DNA of 31,948 nt, taken from assembly GCA_013821315.1 (NCBI GenBank), contig JACDHA010000016.1:1-31948 (forward strand), given 5' to 3'. Of this stretch, positions 3 through 31,948 are shown in pieces. The stretch's first letter is position 1. Each line of letters begins with the position of its first letter. Source of the stretch: Candidatus Babelota bacterium (GTDB taxonomy: Bacteria > Babelota > Babeliae > Babelales > Babelaceae). A model generated the notes under the pieces. That model had not been told where the DNA came from. It saw nothing but the letters and a program-made list of their open reading frames with translations, and ran no database searches. Position numbers and translations under genes: made by a program.

Positions 3-950
3 GATACTGATGGATTTGATGTTCTTAAAGGTATACTTGCAAAAGAAAACAAATCATTGGAAAAAAAATCTCTTAAAGATTTACAATTATTAGGCAAAGA
101 AAAGCCTACATTGTTTGGTTTAGAAGACCGTTATTTTATCAATGCACTTATTGCCGACCCCCAAGGATTTGCACAAAGAGCTTACTTTAAAATTGACGGC
201 ATTCAAAAGGCCGAATCGGTTTATCAAGCAGATCCTGTTAATCAAACAACCACATGGACAATGTCTTTTTACTGCGGTCCTAAAGAAATTGCAGCTTTTG
301 CGGTAGTAGATAAGCGTCTTGATGGTTCTCTTGATTATGGTTGGTTAGCTCTCTTTTCAAAACCATTACTCTATGCGCTTAATTGGCTCAATAAATTTTT
401 GAAAAATTATGGACTAGCTATTATTGCTCTTACTGTTCTTCTTAAGCTTGCAATGGCACCGCTTACCTTTAAATCTGAAGCAAGTAGAAAGCAACAAGCT
501 GAAATGCAGCGTAGGCTTAAATATCTTGAACAAAAATATAGAAATGAACCAGAAGAACTTAGCCGAGCTAAAGCTGAACTAATGACTAAGTTTGGTGTGT
601 CTACTTTATTAACGCCTTTGGCAGTAGTTTTACAGTTTCCTATATTTATTGGTTTGAATCGCGTGCTTTCTAACTCAATAGAGCTTTATAAAGCTCCTTT
701 TGCTTGGATACCCGATTTGTCTGCCCGTGACCCTTATTATATTTTGCCCGTATTATTTGGTGTTGGTATAGTTATACAGATGAGAAGCACCCAAGGGAGT
801 GATCCTCGTCAAGGTCTCGTTACTCTGTTACTTGGCTTAGTACTAGCTGCTTTTACCTCTAACATATCAGCAGGTCTTGCCTTATTTATGGCCGTAAGTA
901 CTCTTCTTGGTCTAGCGCAAACCTTTATTATAAAGGCAGCAAAAGCATGA
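3..950 (+). CDS. yidC: Membrane protein insertase YidC, 5'-truncated at the window edge; the reading frame is open from nt 3. The ORF track starts it at 57 only because that is the first in-window Met.
   Basis: C-terminal five-TM insertase core. Segments such as GWLALFSKPLLYALNWLNKF, GLAIIALTVLLKLAMAPLTFKS and the KQQAEMQ...KYR helical hairpin are typical of YidC/Oxa1. No stop codon lies between nt 3 and 57 in this frame. Confidence 0.85.
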   Translation, partial: DTDGFDVLKGILAKENKSLEKKSLKDLQLLGKEKPTLFGLEDRYFINALIADPQGFAQRAYFKIDGIQKAESVYQADPVNQTTTWTMSFYCGPKEIAAFAVVDKRLDGSLDYGWLALFSKPLLYALNWLNKFLKNYGLAIIALTVLLKLAMAPLTFKSEASRKQQAEMQRRLKYLEQKYRNEPEELSRAKAELMTKFGVSTLLTPLAVVLQFPIFIGLNRVLSNSIELYKAPFAWIPDLSARDPYYILPVLFGVGIVIQMRSTQGSDPRQGLVTLLLGLVLAAFTSNISAGLALFMAVSTLLGLAQTFIIKAAKA

Positions 951-1546
951 TAGATCAAACTCCTTCGTTGATACTGTTGTTAAAACAGTTACAGCGAGTC
1001 CCTTATTTAGCTTCTAAAAACTTATATCGAGTTGCACAGTACTTTCTTGAGCTTGATGATGTAGCAGCTGAGCAATTTTGTAAAGTGTTACTCGATGCTA
1101 AAAGTAAACTGAGTAAGTGTACTCTTTGTTGGTCTTGGAAAGAAAATGACAAAAACTGTTATTTCTGCACTGCACCTAAGCGTGATCAACAAATAATTTG
1201 TGTTGTTGAAACATGGCATGATCTTATTGCTATTGAAAAAGCAGGCGGGTACAGCGGAGTGTATCACGTATTAGGTTCAGCTATTTGCCCCTTAGAAGGT
1301 ATTGGTCCTGAAGATATAACTATTAAGCCACTTATCGCGCGTGTTCAAAGTGGTTGTAAAGAAGTGATCTTTGCTTTCAATCAAACGCCTGAAGGAGAAG
1401 CTACAGCAGCCTATATAGCTTCTAAGCTTCAAAGCTCTGGTATAACTATTTCATGCTTAGCTCAAGGCCTTCCTGTAGGCTCATCGCTTGAATATATGGA
1501 TAAGCTAACGGTGTTTAAAGCACTTTCAGAACGAAGACCATTTTAA
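947..1546 (+). CDS. recR: Recombination protein RecR.
   Basis: Helix-hairpin-helix N-terminus, a C4 zinc finger (CTLC...CYFC) and a Toprim domain (VVETWHDLIAIEKAGGYSGVYHVLGSAICPLEGIGPEDI...EVIFAFNQTPEGEATAAYI). The start overlaps the yidC stop in ATGA. Confidence 0.85.
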   Translation: MIDQTPSLILLLKQLQRVPYLASKNLYRVAQYFLELDDVAAEQFCKVLLDAKSKLSKCTLCWSWKENDKNCYFCTAPKRDQQIICVVETWHDLIAIEKAGGYSGVYHVLGSAICPLEGIGPEDITIKPLIARVQSGCKEVIFAFNQTPEGEATAAYIASKLQSSGITISCLAQGLPVGSSLEYMDKLTVFKALSERRPF

Positions 1547-1572
1547 AAGAGAACAAACTCATAGACAAAAAA

Positions 1573-1598
1573 GCTCTCTTTTAAAGAGGGCTTTTTTA
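1573..1598 (+). terminator. Rho-independent terminator after recR.
   Basis: gcucucuuu / aaagagggc stem with one G-U pair, followed by a T6 run (cttttttatg). Confidence 0.5.
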
Positions 1599-1769
1599 TG
1601 TAACCAAAGAAAACATTTGAGCTTGTCTAAAAATAATTTCTATGGTACAATAAGAAAGCTGCAATACAGCAGCAAAACTATATCACTCACTAGTACTTAA
1701 CGGGTGTTACAAGTACTCTCTCTTTTTTAAATACAATCAAATCTCTTTTTATTATGGAAAGGAAGTATC

Positions 1770-3152
1770 ATGGTTTTAACAATGATCTCTCCTGCAATGC
1801 TGAGCATAATTGCTGCAGTTACTGGACTTTTAACGCTTGTGTTTGTAGCCTCTCGTTATAAACGTTGTCCCTCAAATAAAATACTTGCTGTTTTTGGTAA
1901 AGTGCAAGGCAACTCGTTTGTTCAATGTATTCATGGTGGCGGTGCCTTTGTATGGCCCTTAATTCAAGATTATGCTTTCTTAGATTTAACACCACGCACT
2001 ATACATATACCGCTTAAAAGTGCTTTGTCGTTACAGAATATTCGTATCAATGTGCCTAGTACGTTTACTATTGCTATTGATACTTCTCCTGAATGCATGA
2101 ATAATGCAGCTATACGCCTTCTTGGGCTAAGCAATCAAGAAATAGAGCTTATGGCAGTAGAGATTATTACTGGGCAAATGCGATTAACGGTAGCTTCATT
2201 AACTATTGAACAAATAAATCAAGACAGAGAAAGCTTTTTATCTGCTATTAAAAATCATATTGATCCAGAACTTAATAAAGTTGGTTTATCTCTTATAAAC
2301 GTAAATATTACTGATATTACCGATGAATCTCACTACATTGAAAGTATTGGTAAAAAAGCAGCTTCTCTAGCAGTAAACCAAGCTAAAATTGATGTAGCTG
2401 AAGCTGAGCGTCGTGGTGAAAGTGGAAGAGCAGATGCTGAAAAAGAGCGTCGTATTTCTGTTGCTACCTACAATGCCCAAGCAGTTGAAGGTGAAAATGA
2501 AGCACAAGCACGTATAGCTTCGTTTAATGCAGATTTAGCTCAAAAAAAAGCTGAATATACAACTAAAGCAGAAGTAGCCGAGCAGACTGCTTACGCACAT
2601 ATTCAACATGCTAAAGCTCAAGCTGAACTCAAGCGCTTAGAAGCTGAGCAAATTGTTCCTAAAGAAATTGAAAAGCGTAAAATTGCTATTGATGCTGAAG
2701 CTACAGCTGAAAAAATGCGTCGTGAAGCTATAGGCCAAGCAGAAGCTATCTTATCTATTAGAAATGCTGAAGCAGAAGGTATTCAAAAAACACTTGATGC
2801 AAAAGCTGAAGGCTATACGCGTTTAATTAAAGCGTGTGGTAACGATGCACAAGCGGCAGCTACCATGTTAATGGTTGAAAAACTTGAACAAATAGTCAGC
2901 CTGCAAACTGAAGCTATCAAAAATATAAAGATTGATAAAATAACGGTATGGGATAGTGGTTCTGGTGATAAAGGTAGCTCAACTGCTAATTTTATGAGCA
3001 ACATGGCAAAATCTTTGCCACCTCTTCATGAGGTTGCTGCTATGGCAGGTATTAATTTACCACAGTATTTAGGACAATTAAATCCTGAAACTAACACAGC
3101 AACAGCTAAAACAGAACACAAACAAGCTAAAAAAGAAAAAGAATTAGCGTAA
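1770..3152 (+). CDS. Flotillin-like SPFH/band-7 protein (YqiK/FloT type) with an N-terminal TM anchor and a Glu/Ala-rich coiled-coil tail.
   Basis: N-terminal hydrophobic helix, then an SPFH domain (KILAVFGKVQGNSFVQCIHGGGAFVWPLIQ...), then a long EA-repeat region (AEAERRGESGRADAEKERR..AQAELKRLEAEQ..) characteristic of bacterial flotillins. Confidence 0.8.
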   Translation: MVLTMISPAMLSIIAAVTGLLTLVFVASRYKRCPSNKILAVFGKVQGNSFVQCIHGGGAFVWPLIQDYAFLDLTPRTIHIPLKSALSLQNIRINVPSTFTIAIDTSPECMNNAAIRLLGLSNQEIELMAVEIITGQMRLTVASLTIEQINQDRESFLSAIKNHIDPELNKVGLSLINVNITDITDESHYIESIGKKAASLAVNQAKIDVAEAERRGESGRADAEKERRISVATYNAQAVEGENEAQARIASFNADLAQKKAEYTTKAEVAEQTAYAHIQHAKAQAELKRLEAEQIVPKEIEKRKIAIDAEATAEKMRREAIGQAEAILSIRNAEAEGIQKTLDAKAEGYTRLIKACGNDAQAAATMLMVEKLEQIVSLQTEAIKNIKIDKITVWDSGSGDKGSSTANFMSNMAKSLPPLHEVAAMAGINLPQYLGQLNPETNTATAKTEHKQAKKEKELA

Positions 3153-3167
3153 CTTTTCTAAAATAGT

Positions 3168-3211
3168 AAAAGATAAGAGCTTTTAGATAATTCTAAAAGC
3201 TCTTATCTTTT
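3168..3211. terminator. Bidirectional intrinsic terminator between the convergent flotillin gene and the J-domain gene.
   Basis: Perfect 17-bp inverted repeat aaaagataagagctttt / aaaagctcttatctttt with a 10-nt loop, flanked by A/T runs on both sides. Confidence 0.65.
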
Positions 3212-3226
3212 TGATTTTTTAGTCTA

Positions 3227-3943
3227 TTAGAGCCCCTTGAGCTTGTTAAAAGCATTAGTGATCATTTTAAATACAGCATCAGCTTGAGGGTTATTAAGAT
3301 TTTTATCTGGATGCCATTTAAGTCCCAAGGTTCTATATGCCTTGCTTATGTCAGCCTGGGATGCTTCTGGAGCAACATTAAGTATTTCTGCAGCAGAAGC
3401 GTCTTTGTAAAGGGCTAAGGCTTTTTGTGCGTCTTTAGGGTCAATTTGTGTTAAAGGTGTTCTTTTAATAACGGGTGCTAGTTTTCTGTAGTTTATTACT
3501 TTTGTGGTAATGTCGCTTTCTTTGACGTTGTTGCCTAGCGGGTAACCGCGCTCAGTTTTTCCTCTCAAGCCAAATAAAGGTCCTGATTGAGGGCCAAATA
3601 CTAATTTGTTATTTTCAGCTGTTGCGCGAACATAGATGGTTTTACCAGGTGTAAACTCATACAAATAAACTGATAGAGGTTTATTTATTTGAGGCTCTTG
3701 TAGAGAGAGTATAAGTTGGTTTTTTTTGTTTAAATCAAGAGTTGCGTAGGTATACTTGGTAGAATCGAGCTTAAGTAAATCGTAATTTTTAGCTTCATCT
3801 TTAGGGTTGATTGTCGATTTACCTAAACTATAATAAATAGGGGTACTAAGCTTATTCCAAAGTTCAAAATTAGCATCAGCTTTGCCTGAAGAGCTATAAA
3901 AAAATAAAAGTGCCGTAGTTACAAGTAAATGAGATAGCTTCAT
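3227..3943 (-). CDS. Protein with an N-terminal signal peptide or signal anchor and a C-terminal J-domain. It is either a DjlA-like membrane co-chaperone or an exported J-protein.
   Basis: C-terminal AAEILNVAPEASQADISKAYRTLGLKWHPDKNLNNPQADAVFKMITNAFNKL carries the invariant HPD tripeptide and the flanking helices II and III of a DnaJ domain. The N-terminus, MKLSHLLVTTALLFFYSSSGKADA|NF, has an h-region plus an A-x-A cleavage motif. The ~190-aa middle region has no recognisable homology. Confidence 0.75.
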   Translation of the reverse strand: MKLSHLLVTTALLFFYSSSGKADANFELWNKLSTPIYYSLGKSTINPKDEAKNYDLLKLDSTKYTYATLDLNKKNQLILSLQEPQINKPLSVYLYEFTPGKTIYVRATAENNKLVFGPQSGPLFGLRGKTERGYPLGNNVKESDITTKVINYRKLAPVIKRTPLTQIDPKDAQKALALYKDASAAEILNVAPEASQADISKAYRTLGLKWHPDKNLNNPQADAVFKMITNAFNKLKGL

Positions 3944-4061
3944 GATTTCTCCGTCAGTTTATGTTAAAATTATAAAAAGCTCTTTTGTTTTAAATATGAC
4001 AAATAGCATATGAATATGTCAATAATAAATAATAAGTTAACCCATATAACGAGAGACCTTT

Positions 4062-5381
4062 ATGCATAAAGATTTTAGTATAGTAAAAAAACGACGCCAA
4101 GAGTTACTGCATGCCCTTAAAAAAGAGCATCCAGACAAAAAAGGTATAGTGCTTCTTTTTGGCGCTTTTGAACAAGAACGGTACCGTTTTCGTCAAGAAA
4201 GTTCTTTTTACTATTTAACAAATATAGAAGAGCCAGGTATAGCACTTACATTAGAACTTGACGGCATGGCTCAGGTGTATATACCACAATACAGTGAGTC
4301 GCGAGCTAAATGGGTAGATTCTTTTCTGTTAAATGCGTCGGCTAATGTACTTGCAAACATGGGTATTGATAAGCTTGAGCCGCTTGGTGAAGCTTGCAAG
4401 GGGTATGCACTTTCAAGTAATTGTAATACAGCTGAGTATACTCATCTACTTAGTTTTATAAAAAAACAGATTGCCCAAGGCAATACTATTTTTACCCTTT
4501 ATTCAGGTGAAAATTATAAGGAGCAACGCTTAATTTTAAACAGCTTGTCCCTAGAATTGCCTGAACTTAAAAATAATGTAGTAGATATCAGTAGTATAGT
4601 TGCTAATATGCGCCGTACTAAAAATCAAGCTGAAATAGAGCTTTTATATGGGGCTATAGATTGTACTATGTCTGCTCATGAAGCGGCAGCGGTTATCATA
4701 GAAGCAGGTAAACAAGAATTTGAAATACAGGCAGGTCTTGAGTTTGTTTTTACGCAATCAGGAGCTCAACCCGCTTTTCCTTCGATAGTCGCTAGTGGTA
4801 AAAACGGTACTGTACTCCATTACACGCGTAATACAAGTACGCTTGCTAAAGGTGACTTGGTGGTTATAGACGCAGGTGCTGAGCTTGACTATTACTGCGG
4901 GGATATTACAAGAACCTATCCTATTTCGGGCACATTTACTAAAAGGCAACGAGAAGTCTATACTGTTGTGTTAGAAACGCAGCGTTATATAGAAGAATTG
5001 GCTAAGCCTGGTTTTTGGCTATCTAACAAAGAAAAGCCTGAAAAATCTTTGCACCACATAGCACAAGCTTTTCTAGAAAAGAAAGGGTATGGTAAGTACT
5101 TTACTCATGGACTAGGGCACTTTTTAGGTCTTGATGTGCATGATGTAGGAAGCTATACAGAGCCTCTTAAAGAAGGCGATGTGATAACCCTTGAACCCGG
5201 TATTTATATTCCTGAAGAAAGATTAGCTGTTCGTATTGAAGATAATTACTGGGTTGTTCAAGATGGCATTCTCTGTTTAAGCGAAGAACTTCCTAAAGAT
5301 ATAGAACTTGTGGAAGAAATGATGGTCGAATCTGATGATGAAGACTATGATTACGATGAAGATTATGATGACGAAAACTAA
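4062..5381 (+). CDS. pepP: Xaa-Pro aminopeptidase PepP (M24B family), ending in an acidic Asp/Tyr-rich tail.
   Basis: N-terminal creatinase-like domain plus a pita-bread catalytic domain with metal ligands (VLHYTRNT.., DLVVIDAGAELDYYCGDITRT, HGLGHFLGLDVHD, ITLEPGIY, RIEDN). The C-terminus is ESDDEDYDYDEDYDDEN. Confidence 0.85.
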   Translation: MHKDFSIVKKRRQELLHALKKEHPDKKGIVLLFGAFEQERYRFRQESSFYYLTNIEEPGIALTLELDGMAQVYIPQYSESRAKWVDSFLLNASANVLANMGIDKLEPLGEACKGYALSSNCNTAEYTHLLSFIKKQIAQGNTIFTLYSGENYKEQRLILNSLSLELPELKNNVVDISSIVANMRRTKNQAEIELLYGAIDCTMSAHEAAAVIIEAGKQEFEIQAGLEFVFTQSGAQPAFPSIVASGKNGTVLHYTRNTSTLAKGDLVVIDAGAELDYYCGDITRTYPISGTFTKRQREVYTVVLETQRYIEELAKPGFWLSNKEKPEKSLHHIAQAFLEKKGYGKYFTHGLGHFLGLDVHDVGSYTEPLKEGDVITLEPGIYIPEERLAVRIEDNYWVVQDGILCLSEELPKDIELVEEMMVESDDEDYDYDEDYDDEN

Positions 5382-5403
5382 AAATAAAGAAGTTAATTAA
5401 AAC

Positions 5404-5446
5404 AAAAGACAGGTGTAGCTACCAGCGTTAACTACACCTGTCTTTT
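5404..5446. terminator. Bidirectional intrinsic terminator between the convergent pepP and transporter genes.
   Basis: Perfect 15-bp inverted repeat aaaagacaggtgtag / ctacacctgtctttt with a 13-nt loop. Confidence 0.65.
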
Positions 5447-5447
5447 G

Positions 5448-7151
5448 TTAGTTACTAGCTTTGTTTCGTATATATAAAATTAATAAAGTAGTAGCTAATC
5501 CTGCAATAAAAGCACCAGTAACACTCAAGGTAGGACTATAACTACCAGTAAGTCCAACTATAAGCAAAGCTAAAGTTGTTCCTGCAATAGCAGGAGTAAC
5601 ATAGCCAAACTGTGTAGCAATATGATCAAGGTGATAAGCCCCTGAGCTTGTTGAAGACATTACCGTTGAGTCAGCTATAGGTGATACAGGCCCTCCTGCA
5701 ACTGCTCCTGAAAGTAACCCCCCCATAATGGGGCCCAGCAAAAAAGCTGATTGGGCATCAATTGGTAATGATTGTCCGGTAGCTGCCGTAATAATGGGCA
5801 CTGCAAGCGGCATCATAATCATTATTGTTCCCCAAGCAGAACCAATAGAGGCTGCAATAATAAGTGCGGTAAAAAAGATCATTACCGGTAATAAAAAGGT
5901 GGGAATTGCTCCCAAAACTAAATGAGCCACGTATTGACCGGCTTTTAGATCATCTTTAAGTAAGCTGCTAAGTGTCCAGGCAAGAAGCAAAATAAATAAA
6001 GAATTTTTCATAAGCATAAAGCCACTAACGCTTATATTTTTAAAATTATGCAAGGTTAATTTTTTTTGTAAGGCTGCTATAAGTAGTGTCAGGCTTAGAG
6101 TGATTACGCTTGCAAAACAGAGTGAAAAAAAGATATTTGCCTGTTGTAACGCAGTGCCAAAAGTAGCATTGCCGCCTAGCATATGCCAATTACCCGAATA
6201 CAGAAGAAGTGCAAATACCAAACCAATAAAAAGACCTATTGGCCCAAAAAAATCAATAAGAGAGCCTTTGTGGGCTGGATCTTGAGTTATTTGAACTACC
6301 AGCGGTTGTTTTCCGCCAAACAAGTTGCCCGTACGGTCGGCTTCATGCTCCTGTGCTTTCATACTGCCAAAAGAGATGGAACGTGCAACAATAAAAAATG
6401 CACTGGCAACTATAAAAAAGGGATAAAATAAATAAGCAATAGTATGTAGGTATACACTAAAAGGATCAGCTTTAATAAACGTTGTAAGGCCGGGTTGCTC
6501 AGAAACGCCTGCTGCTTGTAAGTTAACAAGTATCATTGCAGTCCAGCTAGAAGCAGGAATAATAACACATAAGGGTGCGCTCATGGCGTTAAGCAAAAAA
6601 GCTAATTTAACACGAGGTAGAGCAAACTTGTCCGTTAGGGGTCGCATAATACTTCCTACAACTAAACTGCTTAAATAATCATCAATAAAAAAGCACATTG
6701 AAAGAAGCAAGCATACAAACTGAGTTGCTTTTTTAGTATGTAATCTCCGTTGAAGCGTAGTAATATAGGCAGCAATGCCACCAGAATGGGTTATAAAAGA
6801 AATAATTATCCCGAGTGTTATTAAAAAAACAAATGTATAAAAATGATCAGGTGAACCTAAAGGACACCAAATCTTTTGTATATCTGTTTCTCTATAAAGA
6901 CGACAGACTATAAGCTCCACTGTTGCTACAGGAGAAAAAGAGGTAGCTAATGCTGCAGCACTAACAATGCCAGTTGCTAAAGATAAAAGAACGTTGCGCG
7001 ATATAAGAGCAACTATAAGAACTAACAGGGGTGGAAAAAGTACAAGCCATGCAGGCATAAAAACTCCATAAGTATAAGTTAAGAGTAGCGTAGTATTAGT
7101 GTGGCTTAATAAGCCAATTGTTGTAAATAGAAGGGTTAAAAAAGCTGTCAA
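5448..7151 (-). CDS. Polytopic membrane transporter, probably Na+/H+ antiporter NhaC family.
   Basis: 567 aa with about 12 or more hydrophobic helices. The GSAWGTIMIMMPLAVPI motif resembles the SWGT(x)M(L/I)PI signature I associate with the NhaC family. Family assignment is tentative. Confidence 0.45.
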   Translation of the reverse strand: MTAFLTLLFTTIGLLSHTNTTLLLTYTYGVFMPAWLVLFPPLLVLIVALISRNVLLSLATGIVSAAALATSFSPVATVELIVCRLYRETDIQKIWCPLGSPDHFYTFVFLITLGIIISFITHSGGIAAYITTLQRRLHTKKATQFVCLLLSMCFFIDDYLSSLVVGSIMRPLTDKFALPRVKLAFLLNAMSAPLCVIIPASSWTAMILVNLQAAGVSEQPGLTTFIKADPFSVYLHTIAYLFYPFFIVASAFFIVARSISFGSMKAQEHEADRTGNLFGGKQPLVVQITQDPAHKGSLIDFFGPIGLFIGLVFALLLYSGNWHMLGGNATFGTALQQANIFFSLCFASVITLSLTLLIAALQKKLTLHNFKNISVSGFMLMKNSLFILLLAWTLSSLLKDDLKAGQYVAHLVLGAIPTFLLPVMIFFTALIIAASIGSAWGTIMIMMPLAVPIITAATGQSLPIDAQSAFLLGPIMGGLLSGAVAGGPVSPIADSTVMSSTSSGAYHLDHIATQFGYVTPAIAGTTLALLIVGLTGSYSPTLSVTGAFIAGLATTLLILYIRNKASN

Positions 7152-7375
7152 TACAGCAGAATAGGATATATGCGCTAGGAGCGCTTGAGAAATACGTAAA
7201 CAAGAAAGTAAGTGAGAAAGTTCTGCATAAGATACTAAAAGTAGAGTAAAAATAAATAAAATAGAGTTATTAATAAGTGTAGCAAAAAGAAGCCAAATTG
7301 CAAGACAAAGAGATTCTTTTATGCTATAATAACTAAAAACAGAATATATTAAACTAACTATAAGTTAGGCTGCAT

Positions 7376-7405
7376 TTGACGATTTTGCAGTTTTTTTGTT
7401 AATAT
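7376..7405 (+). promoter_or_regulatory. Candidate sigma70-type promoter for rplM.
   Basis: TTGACG (7376-7381), an 18-nt spacer, then TAATAT (7400-7405), about 60 nt upstream of the rplM ATG. Sequence pattern only. Confidence 0.3.
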
Positions 7406-7466
7406 AGAATATAAAGAGTTTCTTACTAATTTCTAATTTTACTTTTTTGAAGACAAAGGTTTTCTC

Positions 7467-7904
7467 ATGGCTGATATGAATAAAGCATACTTCTTGCGTA
7501 AAGAAGATCAGAGCCCTCGCTGGCGCGTTATCGATGCACAAGATCAAATTGTGGGTCGTTTAGCAACTCAAATAGCAGATGCTCTTCGTGGTAAAGATAG
7601 AGCTAACTATACACCGCACAGTGATGCTGGTGACTACGTTGTAGTACTTAATGCTAAAGGTCTTAAGTTAAGTGGCAATAAAATGGACCAAAAGATCTAT
7701 GAAACCTATAGTGGTTGGATCGGTAACAAAAAATATATCACTGCTAAGCAAAAAATGGCAAAAAACCCAGCTGAAATTATTGAACTAGCTGTTAAAGGTA
7801 TGTTGCCAAAAACCAAGCTTGCACGTCAACTTCTTAGAAAGTTACGTGTGTATGTAGGTGCTGAGCATCCTCATGCAGCTCAAATTGCAGGATTTGCTGA
7901 GTAA
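7467..7904 (+). CDS. rplM: 50S ribosomal protein L13.
   Basis: MADMNKAYFLRKEDQSPRWRVIDAQDQIVGRLATQIADALRGK...NYTPHSDAGDYVVVLNA is the canonical L13 N-terminus. Confidence 0.95.
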   Translation: MADMNKAYFLRKEDQSPRWRVIDAQDQIVGRLATQIADALRGKDRANYTPHSDAGDYVVVLNAKGLKLSGNKMDQKIYETYSGWIGNKKYITAKQKMAKNPAEIIELAVKGMLPKTKLARQLLRKLRVYVGAEHPHAAQIAGFAE

Positions 7905-7935
7905 TTCTTAAATCCAGAGCAAGTGCAAAGTTATA

Positions 7936-7967
7936 AAAAAAAAGCCGCTTTTAAAAGCGGCTTTTTT
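7936..7967. terminator. Bidirectional intrinsic terminator between the convergent rplM and rseP genes.
   Basis: aaaaaaaaGCCGCttttaaaaGCGGCtttttt, a perfect palindrome with a GC stem flanked by an A-run and a T-run. Confidence 0.65.
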
Positions 7968-7989
7968 GCATATCAAGTATTAACTATTT

Positions 7990-9102
7990 TTAAAAACCAA
8001 GAAGAGTAAATATGTCTCGGTAAGTCAGGTAGACAACAAGTGCCATTACAAGCAACCACGTAGCATAGTGGATTTTATAACGAGTCTCATCTTTTAATGG
8101 TTTACCTATAAGAGCTTCAATGGTAAAGAATAATGCTTGACCACCGTCAAATATAGGTAATGGCAACATATTAAATACCGCTAAGTTTATACTAATAAAT
8201 GCAAGCATAAATAAGCATACTTTATAGCCCCCTTTAACGCAGCTTGTTACTTGAGCTATCAGCATAAGTGGACCACCAAGACTTGCTTGTGCTTTTTTAA
8301 AGCCTTTAAAGATACCAAACAGCTCTTTAATCATATTCCACGTGGTTTGCCAGCCTTCAGAAAGCGCTTGGCTTAAAGAAACTGCAGGTGTATGCCAATA
8401 AACACCAAGTAGCGGTGTTGCTGCCTTATTGGCAATAGGGGCTGCAAGTTCTAGGGTAAGTGTTTGTTTTACGCCGTTACGTTCAATTTCTACTGGTGTT
8501 TGCTTGCCCATAAGCGGAGTAAGTTTTTCCGTTACTTGCTCTATAGTAGTTACTGGTTGATTATTAATGCTGATTATTTTATCATAAGGCTTAAAACCTG
8601 CTTTAGCTGCAGGCAAATTTTCTGCTACAGTATCAATAAAAGGAGCTCTTGTTTTACAAGTAGAGCCAACACAAGGTCCACCAACATAAAATAAAAAGCT
8701 TAATGCGGCGTAAGCAAATACTAAATTAAATAAAATGCCGCCAAACATAATAAGCATTTTTTGCCAGTAAGGCTTTTGATTAAAAGAGCGCTCGTCAGTA
8801 CTGTTAGCATATGCTTGTTCTCCTTGACCAACTTCTGCTGATCCAGCCATTTCTACATAACCACCTAAAGGAATAGCTGATATAACAAAGTCTGTGTCCC
8901 AGATTCGCTTTTTAAATAAGCGAGGGCCAAATCCAATAGAAAACGAAGGAGTATGAACGCCAAATAGTTTAGCAAAGATAAAATGTCCTAATTCATGAAA
9001 AAATATAAGAAAACAGACGCCCAAAAGCGCTATAATAATTGAAGGCAAATTGTAAATAAGCATAAGTAAATCCATCGGGCATTCTCCTTGATAATTTGAC
9101 AA
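7990..9102 (-). CDS. rseP: RIP zinc metalloprotease RseP (site-2 protease). The true start is probably the internal Met of MDLLMLIY (about 9075).
   Basis: HELGHFIFAKLFG HExxH motif in TM1, a central PDZ-like region, and the C-terminal LAVFNMLPLPIFDGG (LDG) motif. Confidence 0.85.
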   Translation of the reverse strand: MSNYQGECPMDLLMLIYNLPSIIIALLGVCFLIFFHELGHFIFAKLFGVHTPSFSIGFGPRLFKKRIWDTDFVISAIPLGGYVEMAGSAEVGQGEQAYANSTDERSFNQKPYWQKMLIMFGGILFNLVFAYAALSFLFYVGGPCVGSTCKTRAPFIDTVAENLPAAKAGFKPYDKIISINNQPVTTIEQVTEKLTPLMGKQTPVEIERNGVKQTLTLELAAPIANKAATPLLGVYWHTPAVSLSQALSEGWQTTWNMIKELFGIFKGFKKAQASLGGPLMLIAQVTSCVKGGYKVCLFMLAFISINLAVFNMLPLPIFDGGQALFFTIEALIGKPLKDETRYKIHYATWLLVMALVVYLTYRDIFTLLGF

Positions 9103-9183
9103 ATAAGATATTTTATGTTTTACTGCAATGATAACTTACCCAGTCTAATAATGCAAGTATATTTTCCGCTTTATTCTTTTCAC

Positions 9184-9211
9184 TTGAAAAAATCAACAAA
9201 AAAGTTATACT
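9184..9211 (+). promoter_or_regulatory. Candidate promoter in the long leader upstream of rpsL.
   Basis: TTGAAA (9184-9189), a 16-nt spacer, then TATACT (9206-9211), about 290 nt upstream of rpsL. Sequence pattern only. Confidence 0.3.
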
Positions 9212-9499
9212 ATTAATAATTCCCCATATTCGTTTATCAAGTACAACCATATCGGATAAACTCAACGGGACCTTTGTCCTCATTTTTGTGGATATATACA
9301 TTTTGAATTGTAGCATAGGTAATAATCCTGTATACTAATAACATTAATATGTTCAATTTAGTTTTTCTTACACGTATGATCGTTTATAAAACAAATCATC
9401 ATACAGAAAATGAGAACACAAAAATTGTAGACACACAAAATTAAGAGACTAATTTCTTAAAAATAATTTTTTAACTATTTATACCGTAGGTGGTTAGGT

Positions 9500-9874
9500 A
9501 TGCCGACAATTAATCAGCTTGCTCGCCATGAGCGTCCAAAAGCTAAAACAAAATCGAAAAGCGCAGCTTTAAAAGGGGCTCCTCAGGCGCGCGGTGTATG
9601 TACACGTGTTTTCACTACTACACCAAAAAAACCAAACTCAGCGTTACGTAAAGTAGCACGTGTTAAGTTATCAACAGGTATAGAAATTACTGCTTACATC
9701 GGTGGTGAAGGCCACAACTTGCAAGAGCACTCCGTGGTACTTGTACGTGGTGGAAAAGTAAAAGATTTACCTGGTGTGAAGTATCATATTGTTCGTGGTG
9801 CACTTGACTCAGCTGGTGTTGAGAAAAGAAGACAAGGTCGTTCACTCTATGGCGCTAAGCGTCCAAAGAAATAG
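9500..9874 (+). CDS. rpsL: 30S ribosomal protein S12.
   Basis: [55 protein letters not shown]; RBS AGGTGG upstream. Confidence 0.97.
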
Positions 9875-27306: not shown

Positions 27307-28380
27307 ATGTCTAAAAAGAAGTATCAACCCTTAACAATTCCACGGCTTAGTTGGAAGAGAGAAACGTTGAGTAACACTTTTGGTGAACTCGTCGCCCAAC
27401 CGCTTGAGCCGGGATTTGGAATTACTTTAGGGAACGCTTTAAGGCGTATATTATTAGGGGGCGTAGAAGGTTCTGCGGTAACAGCGGTTATTATCCAAAA
27501 TGTTAATAACGAATTTTCTGCACTTGAAGGTATTGTTGAAGATACTATGCAAGTGGTGTTAAATATTAAAGGTTTGGTAGTTCGTAATAGTACGGGTGAA
27601 CCTGGTAAAATGACACTTAACGTTACTGGAGAAGCTGTTGCCAGTGCAGCAGATATCGTTACTGATGAGCATCTAGAAATAGTTAATAAAGATCATATTA
27701 TAGCTCATGTTGCTCAAGGTGGTACGCTTACTCTTGAATTTACTGTTGAATCAGGGCGTGGCTATCAAGCGGCACAGTGGCCGGTAGGCAAAGCACTACA
27801 AGAAGATAATACTATCTATGTAGATGCAATGTTCTCACCAATAAGAAATATAACATTTGATGTAGAAAAAACTCGTGTTGGTCGTGATATCGATTATGAT
27901 AAGCTTACTATAGCTGTTGAAACTGATGGATCAGAAACACCGGTTGATGTAATGCATTATGCAGTATCATTACTACGTACACAGCTTGAGCATTTCTTGT
28001 TAACGGTAGAAATTCCTTTCAATGAAATTTCTGCTGTACCTGAAGAAGAAAAGCGTGAGCAACAACCACAAGTAGAAGAGTCTCTGCTTAAAGGCATTCC
28101 AGTCGATCTTCTATTAAAGCCAATAGACGAACTAGAGCTTTCTGTAAGAGGCCATAATTGTTTGGTTAATGCGGGTATTAAAAGAGTGATTGATCTGGTA
28201 AATCTTACAGAAGATGAAGCTCTAAAAATTAAAAACTTTGGACGTAAATCCTTTAACGAAGTAGGCGAAAGCTTAAAGCCTTATGGCTTATCTTTTGGTA
28301 TGAACATAAAAGAATCTGACGTTAAAAAAGCACTTGAAAATAAAGATAAGGAAGCAGATCATGAATCATCAAAATGGTAG
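27307..28380 (+). CDS. rpoA: DNA-directed RNA polymerase alpha subunit, with an acidic C-terminal extension.
   Basis: NTFGELVAQPLEPGFGITLGNALRRILL NTD; alpha-CTD with ELELSVRGHNCLVNAGIKRVIDLV; 357 aa. Confidence 0.95.
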   Translation: MSKKKYQPLTIPRLSWKRETLSNTFGELVAQPLEPGFGITLGNALRRILLGGVEGSAVTAVIIQNVNNEFSALEGIVEDTMQVVLNIKGLVVRNSTGEPGKMTLNVTGEAVASAADIVTDEHLEIVNKDHIIAHVAQGGTLTLEFTVESGRGYQAAQWPVGKALQEDNTIYVDAMFSPIRNITFDVEKTRVGRDIDYDKLTIAVETDGSETPVDVMHYAVSLLRTQLEHFLLTVEIPFNEISAVPEEEKREQQPQVEESLLKGIPVDLLLKPIDELELSVRGHNCLVNAGIKRVIDLVNLTEDEALKIKNFGRKSFNEVGESLKPYGLSFGMNIKESDVKKALENKDKEADHESSKW

Positions 28381-28720
28381 AAAAAAACTAAATCTGCCTA
28401 CAGCGCATAGAATCGCCATGCTGCGTAATCAAACTATTATGCTTATTGAACATGGTCATGTGGTAACAACTAAAGCACGTGCTAAAGAATTACGTCGCTT
28501 TGCTGAAAAGTTAGTAACACTTGCGCGTGAAGGTAACAACTTTAATGCGCGTCGTCGTGCTAAAGCTATATTGCCTTATAAAGAAGAAGCTCTTGTTAAG
28601 CTTTTTACTGATATCGCTCCTCGCTATATTCATCGTCCAGGTGGATACACACGCATTATACCTTTAGGTAAACGTATAAGCGATACAGCTACTATAGCAA
28701 AAATTGAATGGGTATTATAA
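28361..28720 (+). CDS. rplQ: 50S ribosomal protein L17. The likely start is the ATG at 28361, overlapping the rpoA 3' end by 20 nt; the track ORF begins at an upstream in-frame ATG at 28334.
   Basis: MNHQNGRKKLNLPTAHRIAMLRNQ...HRPGGYTRII matches the L17 N-terminal and C-terminal signatures. AAGGAAG RBS lies 7 nt upstream of 28361. Confidence 0.9.
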   Translation: MNHQNGRKKLNLPTAHRIAMLRNQTIMLIEHGHVVTTKARAKELRRFAEKLVTLAREGNNFNARRRAKAILPYKEEALVKLFTDIAPRYIHRPGGYTRIIPLGKRISDTATIAKIEWVL

Positions 28721-28968
28721 GCAGTCCACTTGATCAAAATCAAGCACTTGTTGAACGTATCAAAGAGCAACTAACTACTATACGCCCTTTAGTAAACTTA
28801 CATGAGGGTGATATAGAGTTTGTCTCTTTTATTGACGGCGTAGTCTCCTTACGACTACATGGCGCTTGCGTCGGCTGTCCTCTTTCTTTCTATACGCTTA
28901 AGCTTGGCATAGAACAGCAACTTCAAGAATCTATTCCTGAAGTACGCGAAGTCGTTGCTGTAGATTAG
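28708..28968 (+). CDS. Nfu/NifU-C-terminal-like Fe-S cluster carrier domain protein (86 aa).
   Basis: IRPLVNLHEGDIEFVSFIDGVVSLRLHGACVGCPLSFYTLKLGIEQQLQESIPEV matches the NfuA C-terminal domain pattern (L..HGG.V.L..I..DG.V.L.L.G.C.GC......TLK.GIE..L....PE). The start overlaps the rplQ end by 13 nt. Confidence 0.7.
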   Translation: MGIISSPLDQNQALVERIKEQLTTIRPLVNLHEGDIEFVSFIDGVVSLRLHGACVGCPLSFYTLKLGIEQQLQESIPEVREVVAVD

Positions 28969-28983
28969 TAAAAATAGCTCCCA

Positions 28984-29019
28984 ATCAGTTGTTTCTGTTG
29001 GGAGTTTTTTTATGCCTTC
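28984..29019 (+). terminator. Rho-independent terminator closing the ribosomal super-operon.
   Basis: agcucccaa / uugggaguu 9-bp stem with one G-U pair and a 13-nt loop, followed by T7. Confidence 0.6.
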
Positions 29020-29133
29020 TCTTCTATTAATTCAAATTATAATTTTTCAACCGGTTGACAATGGCTGTGTATGCTGTACATTTGCTATTATAATTACAAC
29101 TATTATAGTTAAATAAATATACGGGGACACTTC

Positions 29134-30600
29134 ATGTATAAATCAACTAAAGCATATATTGCTCTAGCTTTATTTTCTTTAGCATTACCGCAAGCTCAGC
29201 TTAGTGGGATGCAATCTAATTCCAATAGCGCAGTATCACATAATGCTTTAAAGAAAAGATATGACTTTTTAGAGTCTGAAGCTCAAAAGAATTCTGATCA
29301 GGTAATGAGTCTAATAGTGACCAAACAATCTCTTAAACAAGCACAAGCTTTAGGTGCAAAAAGTGCAACTGATCAAAAACTGAATAAGATTAATGAAGAA
29401 ATAGCACAACAGCTGAGTACCGGTAAGCGCATCTTAGAAAATTTAGATTATACTGCCGAAACCCTTAAAAAGACACCTGTTACAATAAATGATCAACTGC
29501 AAGAAAGAAGAGCTCAATGGATTGCCAGGCAACCCCTACAGAGCGATAGTTTTGAAGATCTTTTTAAAGCTTCCGATGCTCAACATTCTGCTGCAGTGAG
29601 TACAATAGGGCATGATTTAAGAGCGGTTGGTAATGATCTAAAAGCAATTCAAAGTAAAGTAATAGAGCAACAGCAACAAGCAAATACGCGAAGGCAAGAG
29701 CTCTTGCAGCAGTCTAGGCAGGATCTTGATAGCTTACACGCTCTTATTGCAACACCTGCACGTATACAACCTCAGTCTAGTGTGCTGAATGTTCAAGCAG
29801 CTGCACAACGAGCACTTCCGCAGATTAACTCTATTGATGTTGTTGAGCCATTAAGAAACGTGCTTAGTGAAGCACAACAGCAACTTCAAGCCGCTCCTAG
29901 TGAAATTCAACCGAATTTACCTCTAGTTAGAGCTGGTCGCTTATTAGCTGACGAAGCAGATGATGAAGATAACAACGGGCTATTAGCACTTCAAAAAATT
30001 CAGTATCTAGGAAATTATATAAAAGATACTGTTAATGAGCATCGCTATATAACTGCAGGAGTAGCAGTAGGTGTAGGTGCAGGAGCTTTATATGCCTTTA
30101 ATAAGCCTGTACGAGAAAAATGTAATAAAACGGCACGACAAGCTAAAGACAAAGTAAAGGCTACTTGGCAGGAGCTACAAGAGACTAAAGTTACAGCAAA
30201 AGGTGCTGCTGGATTATTAAGCCTTGCAGCTATTATTGCTTTTACAAATGCTCATCGCGATGTAGTAGCTACTTCTACAGCAAGTGCTTATAACTATGTA
30301 ACGAATAATAAAAAAGCTAGTTTAGCTACGTTAGCTACTGGAGCAGCGCTAGCTGGTTTACTTAGGTATGCTTTTTATAGAAAAGATCTAGTAGATGCTA
30401 CGCGTGCTAAGCATAAGTTAATACAAACTACCATGGCTAAATTTATCGATTCTTTAACGTTACCTCAGTGGGCATACTCAGGCATAGATAAGGTAATTAC
30501 AAGAGCTTACTATACTCCTGAAATTTTAAAAGCGAACACAGATTTGTGGAGTGCGCTTTCTGAAGATCAAAAAGCTTTAATTAATCAGTTAAATAATTAA
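29134..30600 (+). CDS. Hypothetical secreted or membrane protein (488 aa). It has a signal peptide, a long Gln-rich predicted coiled-coil region, and three C-terminal Ala/Gly-rich hydrophobic helices.
   Basis: MYKSTKAYIALALFSLALPQAQLSG signal-like N-terminus. About 280 aa of heptad-like Q/E/K-rich sequence (IEQQQQANTRRQELLQQSRQDL...). Then ITAGVAVGVGAGALYAF, KGAAGLLSLAAIIAFTNA and LATLATGAALAGLLRYAFY. No homology I recognise. Confidence 0.6.
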   Translation: MYKSTKAYIALALFSLALPQAQLSGMQSNSNSAVSHNALKKRYDFLESEAQKNSDQVMSLIVTKQSLKQAQALGAKSATDQKLNKINEEIAQQLSTGKRILENLDYTAETLKKTPVTINDQLQERRAQWIARQPLQSDSFEDLFKASDAQHSAAVSTIGHDLRAVGNDLKAIQSKVIEQQQQANTRRQELLQQSRQDLDSLHALIATPARIQPQSSVLNVQAAAQRALPQINSIDVVEPLRNVLSEAQQQLQAAPSEIQPNLPLVRAGRLLADEADDEDNNGLLALQKIQYLGNYIKDTVNEHRYITAGVAVGVGAGALYAFNKPVREKCNKTARQAKDKVKATWQELQETKVTAKGAAGLLSLAAIIAFTNAHRDVVATSTASAYNYVTNNKKASLATLATGAALAGLLRYAFYRKDLVDATRAKHKLIQTTMAKFIDSLTLPQWAYSGIDKVITRAYYTPEILKANTDLWSALSEDQKALINQLNN

Positions 30601-30634
30601 ATATACCTGTATATAAAACTATGAAAGTTTTACT

Positions 30635-30937
30635 ATGACTCAAAAGAAAATGTTTTTTAGTATTGTTTTAAGTTTAGCGTTTCTTAGTAATAACTGTGCT
30701 CAAGCAGCAGATCTTACAACGAGCAAAGCAGCTTTTTATGTAAAGAAAATGTGTGCTAATCTTAAAGCAACTACGTATAGTGGTTTAAGTAAAACAAAAG
30801 CTTTATTGTATAGAGGTAAAACTAAAGTTGCTCAACCAGGTGATTACATAATTACTCGTGGTATGGCTGTTAAAACCGTGGTAGCTGCTGGTGCACTCTA
30901 TGGTATAGCACGAGGTCTTCAAAAGCTTAGAAAATAG
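30635..30937 (+). CDS. Hypothetical small basic secreted protein (100 aa), member of the local family.
   Basis: Signal peptide MTQKKMFFSIVLSLAFLSNNCAQA|AD. The C-terminus, VVAAGALYGIARGLQKLRK, carries the shared A-G-x-L-Y-G + basic module. Confidence 0.55.
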   Translation: MTQKKMFFSIVLSLAFLSNNCAQAADLTTSKAAFYVKKMCANLKATTYSGLSKTKALLYRGKTKVAQPGDYIITRGMAVKTVVAAGALYGIARGLQKLRK

Positions 30938-31011
30938 CATAAGCTATAACTAGTAATAAGTTACGCTCTTTTCAAGATTATGATACTCTATATACTTAAC
31001 AATTAGACAAA

Positions 31012-31066
31012 TACTTAAGGATTGTATGAATAAAACCAATAAAAAATTAGTTATAGCATTAAGTGT
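31012..31066 (+). repeat. Direct repeat, copy 1 (5'-UTR/RBS plus signal-peptide coding module); copy 2 lies at 31339-31393.
   Basis: tacttaagg(a/g)ttgtatgaataaaa(c/g)caataaaaaatta(g/a)ttatagcattaag shows about 52 of 55 identical nt between the two loci, then diverges. Confidence 0.8.
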
Positions 31067-31286
31067 AGTAGGTCTTCTAAGCATGCCAATAAACATGCGT
31101 GCTCATGGTTTTTCTGCTCTGTCTTCTAAGTTTAATTCTAAGCTTAGCTCTAGTACAGTTTTTTTTATTATGCTAGGCAGCTATATAACTTATAAGCTGT
31201 ATAAACGTTATCAAACAACTCAAGAACAAGAAATTGAAGAACAAGAAATTCAAGAGCAGCAAGAATTAGCTGTAGAAAACGAATAA
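31026..31286 (+). CDS. Hypothetical small signal-peptide membrane protein (86 aa) with a Q/E-repeat tail, paralogous at its 5' end to the next gene.
   Basis: MNKTNKKLVIALSVVGLLSMPINMRA|HG signal, then TVFFIMLGSYITYKLYKRY, then EQEIEEQEIQEQQELAVENE. Confidence 0.5.
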   Translation: MNKTNKKLVIALSVVGLLSMPINMRAHGFSALSSKFNSKLSSSTVFFIMLGSYITYKLYKRYQTTQEQEIEEQEIQEQQELAVENE

Positions 31287-31338
31287 TTTAAAAAGCTTTT
31301 TTCTGTTATAAAAGTTTATTATTTTAGTAACTAGTTAT

Positions 31339-31393
31339 TACTTAAGGGTTGTATGAATAAAAGCAATAAAAAATTAATTATAGCATTAAGCAT
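31339..31393 (+). repeat. Direct repeat, copy 2 of the 5' module shared with 31012-31066.
   Basis: See copy 1. Confidence 0.8.
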
Positions 31394-31948
31394 TGTTGGC
31401 ATACCTGTTAGCATCAATGCCCACTTTTTTAATAAAAAAGTAGTTGCTACAACAGGTGTTACTGCAGGCGTAGCTTTAGCCGCTCTTGCTTATAAAAAAC
31501 GGCAAGCTCTTAAAAATGCAGCAATAGCGACTAAAGAAAAAACAGTTGAGCTTTACGATAGAGCAGTATTTGCTGCCGGAATTAAAGTTTTGGAATGCCA
31601 AGAATGGTGGCAAGAGTTTGATAAAACTCCATTAAACTATGCTGACATTACAGCAGCTACTGCTTTTTGCGGTACAGCATACGGTCTTAAAAAGCTTGAT
31701 GATACCTATAATGTTGGTCGTAAAATAGTTAATGCAACTAAAGCTACCGCTCGCGTAACTTCTGGCTTGATAGGTACTATAGCTAAAGCAACACCTGGAG
31801 TAGTTTATCGTAACAGCACAGAAGCTTGGGCGTATGTAAATTCTCATAAAACACAAGTGGCTGTTATTACTGGTAGTTTAGGGGCAGCCTATATCTTATG
31901 GCAAATTGGCAAAAGTGTTAATGCCGATAGACAGCAGAATTTAACAAC
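31353..31948 (+). CDS. Hypothetical signal-peptide protein, 3'-truncated at the window end (more than 198 aa). Paralog of the 31026 gene, with four repeats of the Ala/Gly-rich ...Y + basic module. Not in the ORF track because no stop occurs in the window.
   Basis: Translating from the ATG at 31353 gives MNKSNKKLIIALSIVGIPVSINA|HFFNKKVVATTGVTAGVALAALAYKKRQ...AATAFCGTAYGLKKLDD...TSGLIGTIAKATPGVVYRN...VITGSLGAAYILWQIGK..., open to nt 31948. Confidence 0.5.
   Translation, partial: MNKSNKKLIIALSIVGIPVSINAHFFNKKVVATTGVTAGVALAALAYKKRQALKNAAIATKEKTVELYDRAVFAAGIKVLECQEWWQEFDKTPLNYADITAATAFCGTAYGLKKLDDTYNVGRKIVNATKATARVTSGLIGTIAKATPGVVYRNSTEAWAYVNSHKTQVAVITGSLGAAYILWQIGKSVNADRQQNLT

Follow-up and report, generated by a model that had tools for sequence, protein, structure and literature searches.

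The gene cluster and its four proteins

The window analysed here comprises positions 1-31,948 of contig JACDHA010000016.1, part of a Candidatus Dependentiae (TM6) metagenome-assembled genome (MAG), and its final part encodes four consecutive proteins, P1 to P4, on the forward strand (Table 1). Their open reading frames (ORFs), starting at 29134, 30635, 31026 and 31353, lie exactly where a preceding sequence-only reading of this DNA had placed them, and all four N-termini resemble signal peptides, in which a hydrophobic core (Kyte-Doolittle 1.5-2.1) stands between a basic n-region and a c-region of small residues. Throughout this study signal peptides were called by inspection and hydropathy, and transmembrane status by hydropathy. 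P1 corresponds to the NCBI hypothetical protein H0X48_04600 of Candidatus Dependentiae. P4 is truncated by the end of the window, but Logan contig L001, which is 99.99% identical to the window and extends past its end, contains the complete protein followed by trxB. Since trxB comes next, the cluster consists of exactly four genes, whereas the sequence-only reading had spoken of four or more.

P1 and P4 share a domain at the C-terminus, referred to here as the CTD (C-terminal domain). The copy in P1 is the only one within the window, that of P4 lying just past its end. As described below, P1, P3 and P4 belong to a modular protein family that is absent from the Pfam and NCBIfam libraries, occupies a conserved slot in the genomes of other lineages and diverges rapidly. 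Scans with these libraries returned no model at its cut-off for P1-P4 or for the 44 aligned members of the family, only sub-threshold noise, so that the original suggestion that the proteins belong to no known family withstood the profile searches intended to refute it.

Table 1. Features of the four-gene cluster and its upstream border in the window
Feature	Position	Strand	Details
P1	29134-30600	+	488 aa; signal peptide, Gln-rich variable region of ~275 aa, hydrophobic segments, CTD
P1 module H1 (ITAGVAVGVGAGALYAF-NKP)	30043-30099	+	Kyte-Doolittle 1.71; aligns with P4 H1
P1 middle hydrophobic segment (AAGLLSLAAIIAFTNA)	30196-30249	+	Kyte-Doolittle 1.72
P1 module H3 (NNKKASLATLATGAALAGLLRYAFYRKD)	30322-30381	+	Kyte-Doolittle 1.35; aligns with P4 H3
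P1 CTD (FIDSLTLPQ...YTPEIL...LSEDQKALINQL)	30436-30591	+	~52 aa; CTD hidden Markov model E 7e-14
P2	30635-30937	+	100 aa; signal peptide and one C-terminal module (VVAAGALYGIARGLQKLRK); only the architecture in common
P3	31026-31286	+	86 aa; signal peptide, one module (FFIMLGSYITYKLYKRY), acidic tail; short paralog of the P4 N-terminus
P4	31353-31948	+	Canonical family member, cut by window end (full length 271 aa)
P4 H1	31437-31502	+	
P4 H2 (CGTAYGLKKLDD)	31647-31694	+	
P4 H3	31848-31913	+	
Direct repeat, copy 1	31012-31072	+	Spans the ribosome-binding site and codons 1-15 of P3; 61 nt, 89% identity with copy 2
Direct repeat, copy 2	31339-31399	+	Spans the ribosome-binding site and codons 1-15 of P4; 61 nt, 89% identity with copy 1
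nifU-like gene	28708-28968	+	86 aa; Nfu C-terminal domain; Pfam NifU 80.8 bits; same position in L002, L007 and L034
Intrinsic terminator	28976-29011	+	GC-rich hairpin and U7, closes the operon; dG -19.4 kcal/mol, z -6.6
Candidate sigma-70-type promoter for the cluster	29055-29082	+	TTGACA-16-TACATT; consensus scan, 10/12 matches

Relationships among the four proteins

Sequence comparison indicates that P1, P3 and P4 are homologous. P3 and P4 have their first ~60 residues in common (BLASTP E 7e-9), P1 aligns with P4 over its last 200 residues, with residues 351-486 of P1 matching residues 129-256 of P4 (pairwise E 0.002), and the hidden Markov model (HMM) of the family matches P1 over residues 260-485 with an E value of 3e-16. 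P1 is the long-ectodomain version of the family and P3 duplicates the N-terminus of P4 in truncated form. In both P3 and P4, the signal peptide and H1 are just 5-20 residues apart, giving a bilobed-like arrangement. The shared N-terminus of these two proteins, together with the 61-nt direct repeat, reflects a recent tandem duplication or gene conversion; in a sister genome, the assembly breaks exactly between the counterparts P3' and P4', the place that corresponds to this repeat. The repeat, along with the 3-6 paralogs found in the same slot in other lineages, bears out the earlier description of the family as expanding. P2, in contrast, matches neither P1 nor P4 nor the family HMM significantly (pairwise comparisons; HMM E 0.04). 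The proposal that all four proteins form one family therefore holds for P1, P3 and P4, which are homologous, but not for P2, which has no detectable homology to them.

The hydrophobic module

Each protein contains, beyond its signal peptide, hydrophobic segments of moderate strength (Kyte-Doolittle 1.2-1.9), three of which are found in P1, two clear and two weak ones in P4, and one each in P2 and P3. These had been described as a shared module, a small-xxx-small (glycine-zipper-like) stretch that ends in Tyr and is followed by Lys or Arg, and the two halves of this description fared differently. The tight motif [AGSTCVLIMF]{6}Y.{0,3}[KR] occurs five times in P1-P4 compared with 0.71 times in residue shuffles (p ~5e-4), a density of 5.3 per 1000 residues that exceeds the 0.23 of the 38 remaining window proteins ~20-fold; SecY has none. 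Residue shuffles are a weak null, because shuffling destroys hydrophobic clustering, and helix ends were therefore compared directly. The pattern [YW]x0-4[KR] ends 86 of the 134 non-signal hydrophobic segments (64%) across the family, as opposed to 16 of 65 (25%) in control segments from the SecY, YidC, NhaC, RseP, BrnQ and DUF726 proteins of the same genomes (Fisher p 2e-7, a value to be read with the relatedness of the family sequences in mind, since the segment counts behind it are not independent). The family helices also carry Lys or Arg on both flanks in 82% of cases, with 1.8-1.9 of these residues per eight positions where 0.99 are expected, and a larger fraction of Gly, Ala, Ser and Thr than the controls (0.41 versus 0.30). 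As it is enriched over control helix ends, the Tyr/Trp-basic module is regarded as a signature of the family that goes beyond the generic aromatic-belt and positive-inside features of membrane helices, and the earlier report of a shared motif survived the shuffling control. The glycine-zipper character did not. The strict motif ([AGS]xxx[AGS]...Y...[KR]) is not enriched (2 occurrences versus 0.47 in shuffles, p 0.11), and the families suggested on its account, Gly-zipper_Omp (PF13488), Gly-zipper_YMGG (PF13441) and Rick_17kDa_Anti (PF05433), gave no match at E<=1 to P1-P4 and none at E<=0.1 to the 44 family members.

Family size, architecture and distribution

Word-seeded searches retrieved one relative of P1, among 5.8 billion proteins, and one ortholog of P4, from the same other metagenome. 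The family came into view with an exhaustive profile search seeded by P4 (1.84 billion representatives), which recovered 58 protein clusters of 127-752 residues at E<=1e-3, including 15 at E<=1e-10; none of the 58 carries a Pfam or NCBIfam assignment. In an alignment of 44 sequences, the members share one modular grammar. The signal peptide leads into a variable region and a [DNE][HN]P[KR]-type cap; H1, with AYKK at its end, and a basic helix come next, then the segment PxxxKWEEIKEEGLTKxD, H2 closing on YG[LIV]KKxxD, a linker, NxK, H3 closing on Trp or Tyr followed by Lys, and the CTD of ~58 residues. The variable region is of low complexity or coiled-coil and ranges from 0 to ~550 residues, the helices (~18 residues) number from one to three, and the CTD is optional.

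A signal-peptide-like N-terminus is present in 64 of the 72 family sequences looked at. In 31 of these 64 proteins, a Met stands directly after the c-region ([YAS][SGA]-M-[DEQN]), as in P1 (...AQLSG-MQSN, 29134-29215), whilst Met makes up 1.6% of residues overall; an unrelated 1316-residue neighbour protein in L021 (1496-5446) likewise has such a Met. This residue may reflect a cleavage-site preference particular to the lineage or an internal start.

The named relatives are all from Dependentiae, and all of the contexts look alike, so that the family appears, as far as can be seen from these records, to be specific to this phylum, in agreement with the lineage-specific character proposed earlier. 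A scan of GTDB genomes with P1 gave no match, and a hand-made degenerate DNA pattern gave 23 matches of which one, in a Dependentiae MAG, was real, a method too insensitive to provide paralog counts per genome. Both the family and the CTD are undescribed so far, to judge from the family libraries and the literature consulted. The kind to which they belong is already familiar, as tandem, fast-evolving families of signal-peptide ORFans occur in Dependentiae and in other obligate intracellular bacteria.

The C-terminal domain

The CTD, which harbours all of the near-invariant positions of the family, has the consensus xxFxxSL[ST]xEQ..I...eL..L..qA.[DN]NPxxL....FMxLL[ST]xxQKxxL, spans ~58 residues and is helical. 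It contains a [DN]NPxxL motif and two L[ST]xxQ motifs, in the second of which the Gln is nearly invariant. In iterated HMM searches, 60 proteins proved to contain the CTD, in one to three copies each (69 in all), and at every locus examined the CTD is confined to the cluster. AlphaFold 2 (AF2) models it as a bundle of ~60 residues with 5-6 short helices, at a predicted local distance difference test score (pLDDT) of 93-98; this value comes from a P4 model computed with 44 sequences, for which the overall pLDDT is 73. The CTD of P1 reaches 76-87 with a shallow alignment, and the model of the C-terminal half of P1, from four sequences, is poor (pLDDT 53).

In addition to the proteins with hydrophobic modules, the CTD is found in other architectures. 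Three signal-peptide proteins consist of a RING finger (zf-RING_2 at 30.3, 32.0 and 37.2 bits, cut-off 27.3) and two CTDs, without hydrophobic modules. Two of the three are encoded by adjacent genes in L009 (10001-11998), beside a pilM/T2SS-L gene and two secretin genes. A 650-residue protein from a GTDB Candidatus Dependentiae MAG (L021) has a signal peptide, one module and a CTD, after which come a long unassigned region and a partial CTD.

Similarity of the CTD to known domains is confined to weak signals. The LTXXQ profile (PF07813) matches nine of 55 CTD copies, with a best E value of 8e-4, below significance. A sequence search of the PDB lists Spy chains at E 0.1-0.6, its best match being 2llw (Sti1 DP2; E 0.011 over 26 residues), and Foldseek places CnrX first at E ~1. 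An hhalign comparison with Spy and CpxP, for which approximate sequences were used and which amounts to a lead only, covers just one LTxEQK motif of 16-17 residues, with probabilities of 23% and 11%. The STI1/HOP DP family (PF17830) matches one of the 55 copies (E 0.047) and is absent from the fold-search lists. The CTD is therefore taken as a new domain with LTXXQ-like motifs, because the hhalign alignment covers a single motif, the predicted fold is built of short helices and the DP match is unbacked by fold searches.

A conserved genomic slot

The window covers a ribosomal-protein region with the S10, spc and alpha operons, secY, adk, map, infA, rpoA and rplQ. The sequence-only reading had placed the cluster directly behind the terminator of the ribosomal operon at the rplQ boundary. 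The terminator is there, and none of 200 shuffles folds as well; however, it is not rplQ but the nifU-like gene that actually closes the rpoA-rplQ operon and borders the slot on its upstream side. The ORF of the nifU-like gene overlaps the 3' end and stop codon of rplQ, and the rpoA and rplQ ORFs overlap too (28334-28968). The promoter-like site downstream of the terminator is a pattern match only, the number of such sites in the region being not above that in shuffles.

A search for the cluster in relatives, suggested with the first reading, confirmed that they carry it at the rplQ(-nifU)/trxB slot. In the sister genome ERZ27297509, recovered as contigs L002 (upstream, with P1' as P0002 and a fragment of the P3 ortholog) and L004 (downstream), the order is nifU, P1' (760 residues), P2' (190 residues), P3', the assembly break, P4' (258 residues), trxB, brnQ and sufCBD. 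The cluster likewise lies between rplQ(-nifU) and trxB in the window together with L001, in L007, in L034 (three ORFs) and in L035 (six ORFs). L007, whose RpoA and TrxB are 76% and 56% identical to those of the window genome, carries five unannotated ORFs between nifU and trxB, of which four encode family members, one of them a P1-like protein of 718 residues with a charged N-terminal region. In L033 and L006 the cluster stands beside trxB and brnQ, with its upstream border beyond the recovered sequence. A P4-like gene is located directly upstream of trxB in L001, L004, L007, L033, L034 and L035, and the canonical P4-like gene is always the last before trxB with the sole exception of L006, in which an ankyrin gene intervenes. 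The ORFs upstream of it encode a signal peptide and one to three modules, to which a CTD is added in some cases.

This constancy of position is accompanied by rapid divergence of sequence. Between the window and its sister genome, identity is 97% for SecY, 97.5% for RplQ, 96% for RpoA, 92% for BrnQ, 88% for NifU and 82% for TrxB, as against 58% for the C-terminal part of P1 (200 residues) and ~50% for P3 and P4. With proteins 50% identical, synonymous positions are saturated. The N-terminal regions of P1 and its counterpart (265 versus 535 residues) are unalignable, and P2 and P2' have no sequence similarity, although a signal peptide and a C-terminal module are kept in both. P4 and its counterparts in distant lineages are 21-27% identical.

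Several further observations concern this locus. The trxB gene beyond the cluster (L001 13170-14294, ~1.2 kb past the window end) encodes a genuine thioredoxin-disulfide reductase, which scores 345.8 bits against TIGR01292 (cut-off 343.45), and in seven lineages (L001, L004, L006, L007, L033, L034 and L035) TrxB has a signal-peptide-like extension of 25-45 residues before the FAD-binding GxGxxG motif, which suggests an exported or membrane-tethered TrxB. In L001 and L004, sufCBD and sufS are encoded downstream of the cluster, at a distance of a few kb. In L007, a contig of 1.42 Mb, rpoA is called as two pieces of 140 and 126 residues (2858-3899), whilst it is intact in the near-identical L008, and an ORF for a 181-residue signal-peptide protein overlaps the gene of the 718-residue family member (7108-9806; TTG start at 7650); both are probably frameshifts or assembly errors that divide single genes. 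The upstream part of the window (57-9102) received ordinary housekeeping assignments, namely YidC, RecR, an SPFH/flotillin-like protein, an Xaa-Pro aminopeptidase, an NhaC-type antiporter, L13 and an RseP-type M50 protease.

The AT-richness attributed to the cluster proved negligible, at 36.0% GC compared with 38.6% in the operon. The values for P1 and P4 are 38%, and their GC content at third codon positions equals that of rpoA and secY. Horizontal acquisition was considered as an origin of the cluster and ruled out, both GC measures being those of the genome.

Functional interpretation

We consider it probable, though far from settled, that the cluster represents an undescribed, Dependentiae-specific family of Sec-exported modular proteins with a role at the interface between bacterium and host. 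According to this model, the cluster proteins would be exported by Sec, and their hydrophobic modules would hold them in a membrane, which could be the envelope of the parasite or, after release through a type II secretion system (T2SS) or in vesicles, a membrane of the host. The variable region and the CTD would be displayed as protein-binding modules or interaction surfaces, and the cluster would diversify by tandem duplication, truncation and shuffling of modules. A role at the host interface is favoured, modestly, over one in the bacterial envelope because the same CTD is attached to exported proteins of the RING E3-ligase type, which can act only with host ubiquitin machinery. The extreme divergence and the low-complexity ectodomains would also fit such a role, as would the Macro and J domains of neighbouring signal-peptide proteins, and members with two and three modules cannot share one inner-membrane topology. 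In support of this model, signal-peptide proteins with eukaryote-like domains are presumed to be secreted into the host, the T2SS being the sole secretion system found in these bacteria (PMC4378268, PMC4776705, PMC6561590), and all TM6 genomes have two copies of gspD (PMC4776705).

A number of points weigh against this model. P2 is an architecture-only look-alike, and the named taxon records behind the taxonomic restriction are few, with most matches on metagenome contigs. Both flanks of the module are basic, so the positive-inside rule gives no orientation, and members with two modules would place the CTD on the opposite side of the membrane from those with three. Hydrophobic segments behind a Sec signal would ordinarily halt translocation in the inner membrane of the bacterium itself, arguing against release to the host. 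Finally, the phylum-wide fixed position by trxB and iron-sulphur (Fe-S) genes fits a core envelope role at least equally well; the earlier preference for effectors over housekeeping proteins therefore goes too far, since a P4-like gene fixed beside trxB across deep divergence is just as compatible with a conserved core role.

Such a role is the substance of an alternative model, which we regard as possible but doubtful, wherein the proteins are housekeeping components of the envelope, anchored in the inner membrane, with the CTD as a CpxP/Spy-like (LTXXQ) periplasmic holdase or stress module that may be tied to the signal-peptide TrxB and to the Nfu and Suf proteins. The fixed place of the P4-like gene upstream of trxB in six lineages, near nifU and the suf genes, would be well explained, as would the retention of the segments in the inner membrane that established knowledge leads one to expect, and the two L[ST]xxQ motifs of the CTD converge with the weak LTXXQ, Spy and CnrX matches. 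Each of these LTXXQ signals nevertheless falls below significance, and the hhalign alignment is restricted to one short motif. The CpxP/Spy fold is a long alpha-helical hairpin of ~100-130 residues, whereas the CTD is predicted to have ~58 residues in 5-6 short helices. In addition, RING-CTD fusions would be senseless in a periplasm, and the divergence of the cluster is extreme relative to its neighbour genes. Two other explanations have little to commend them. That the module is a generic transmembrane-helix end and the four ORFs are unrelated, adjacent ORFans is scarcely credible: Tyr/Trp and Lys/Arg are common at helix ends, as the control segments illustrate, P2 has no detectable homology to the others, and chance runs of signal-peptide genes are expected where, as in the cultured Chromulinavorax, 44% of coding sequences carry signal peptides, with enrichment in ORFans (PMC6561590); yet the homology of P1, P3 and P4, the excess of the pattern over the controls, its absence from SecY and the recurrence of the same modular proteins in the slot of six other lineages contradict it, such that profile search and synteny largely refute it. 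It is also highly improbable that the proteins belong to a known family of small membrane proteins, whether Gly-zipper_Omp, Gly-zipper_YMGG, Rick_17kDa_Anti or YtxH-like. The Gly/Ala-rich helices do contain small-xxx-small spacing, and the YtxH-like profile (PF12732) matches residues 307-351 of P1 (E 0.0055) and two of the 44 family members (best E 9.8e-5), but the P1 match, at 17.6 bits, is far under the gathering cut-off of 37.5 bits, the Gly-zipper models match neither the four proteins nor the 44 members, and the strict spacing does not exceed that in shuffles.

The host-interface model can be extended into a bolder proposal, which on present evidence is unlikely, that the family constitutes a class of membrane-inserting effectors delivered by Sec plus T2SS (or vesicles). 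Their helices would insert into the membranes of host organelles, and the CTD would serve as a portable module for host targeting or partner binding. The family helices, moderately hydrophobic with basic flanks, resemble the signal anchors of the eukaryotic mitochondrial outer membrane and tail anchors, and Chromulinavorax wraps itself in a host mitochondrion.

Other signal-peptide proteins encoded nearby carry Macro and J domains. The window itself contains, on the reverse strand (3227-3943), a gene for a 238-residue protein whose N-terminus (MKLSHLLVTTALLFFYSSSGKADA) resembles a signal peptide and whose C-terminal J domain (Pfam DnaJ, 55 bits) includes an HPD motif, apparently an exported J-domain protein; L033 (3176-4024) encodes one of the same type. 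In L006 (244-1044), a Macro-domain protein (Pfam, 107.9 bits), equipped with a signal peptide and, at the C-terminus, a hydrophobic module that closes with ...LLSYAGYRYYNR, is encoded directly upstream of five tandem family members. These nearby Macro- and J-domain proteins are without a CTD and have a similar signal-peptide layout.

Obligate parasitism of protists is the way of life of the widespread Dependentiae, in which signal-peptide ORFans without an assigned role make up about half of the proteins. Four anonymous ORFs of this sort have here been turned into a defined, phylum-wide family with a modular grammar, a new domain of ~58 residues and a fixed, hypervariable locus beside an unusual signal-peptide TrxB. 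The HMM, the confidently folding domain and the RING-CTD fusions offer handles for experiments in the few cultured species, and the locus offers a marker for comparative genomics of host adaptation. Were the proteins to act in host membranes, they would represent a new strategy of effector delivery and anchoring; were they to act in the envelope, they would be a phylum-specific component of it. In either case, specialists would find no surprise in the kind of protein.

Comparison with known systems

The family shares features with several known systems and is distinct from each. In common with YtxH-like proteins, it has a Gly-rich N-terminal membrane helix followed by basic residues of the 'A-x-K-P/S' type and a Lys/Glu-rich amphipathic helix; unlike the family, YtxH proteins are without a cleavable signal peptide, H2 and H3 modules and a CTD. 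CpxP, Spy and ZraP (LTXXQ, PF07813) are, like the CTD proteins, exported and all-helical, with two L-T/S-x-x-Q motifs of the form LTxEQ[KR]xx[IL], and the weak sequence and fold matches converge on them. The CTD thus possesses the two motifs characteristic of PF07813, whilst a significant profile match over the whole domain was not obtained. The CTD also differs in being half the size, with 5-6 predicted short helices, in remaining below all thresholds, in its attachment to membrane anchors, to RING fingers and to the 650-residue protein, and in its occurrence in two or three copies. A small helical domain with a 'QAQxNPxxL' motif is also found in the STI1/HOP DP family (PF17830; PDB 2llw).

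The chlamydial Inc proteins, which belong to obligate intracellular bacteria, and other transmembrane effectors of such intracellular organisms resemble the family in being lineage-specific, tandem and fast-evolving, with moderately hydrophobic paired helices and variable or coiled-coil regions. The Inc proteins differ in possessing an N-terminal type III secretion signal where the family has a Sec-type signal, and there is no sequence similarity between the two. The bilobed hydrophobic domain combined with type III secretion that marks an Inc protein does not apply to the family, only a T2SS having been reported in Dependentiae (PMC4378268, PMC4776705).

Further parallels are the signal-peptide ORFans and eukaryote-like-domain proteins of the Dependentiae Babela and Chromulinavorax, presumed to be host-interaction factors exported by Sec and T2SS, which have in common with the family their phylum, a Sec-type signal, lineage specificity, clustering and fast evolution (PMC4378268, PMC6561590). 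Lys-flanked modules, the CTD and the rplQ-nifU/trxB slot are features of the family that do not appear in these two accounts. The CTD joins the cluster family to the exported RING proteins of the same phylum; and whereas the published exported proteins of Dependentiae carry soluble repeat domains, the family described here carries membrane anchors.

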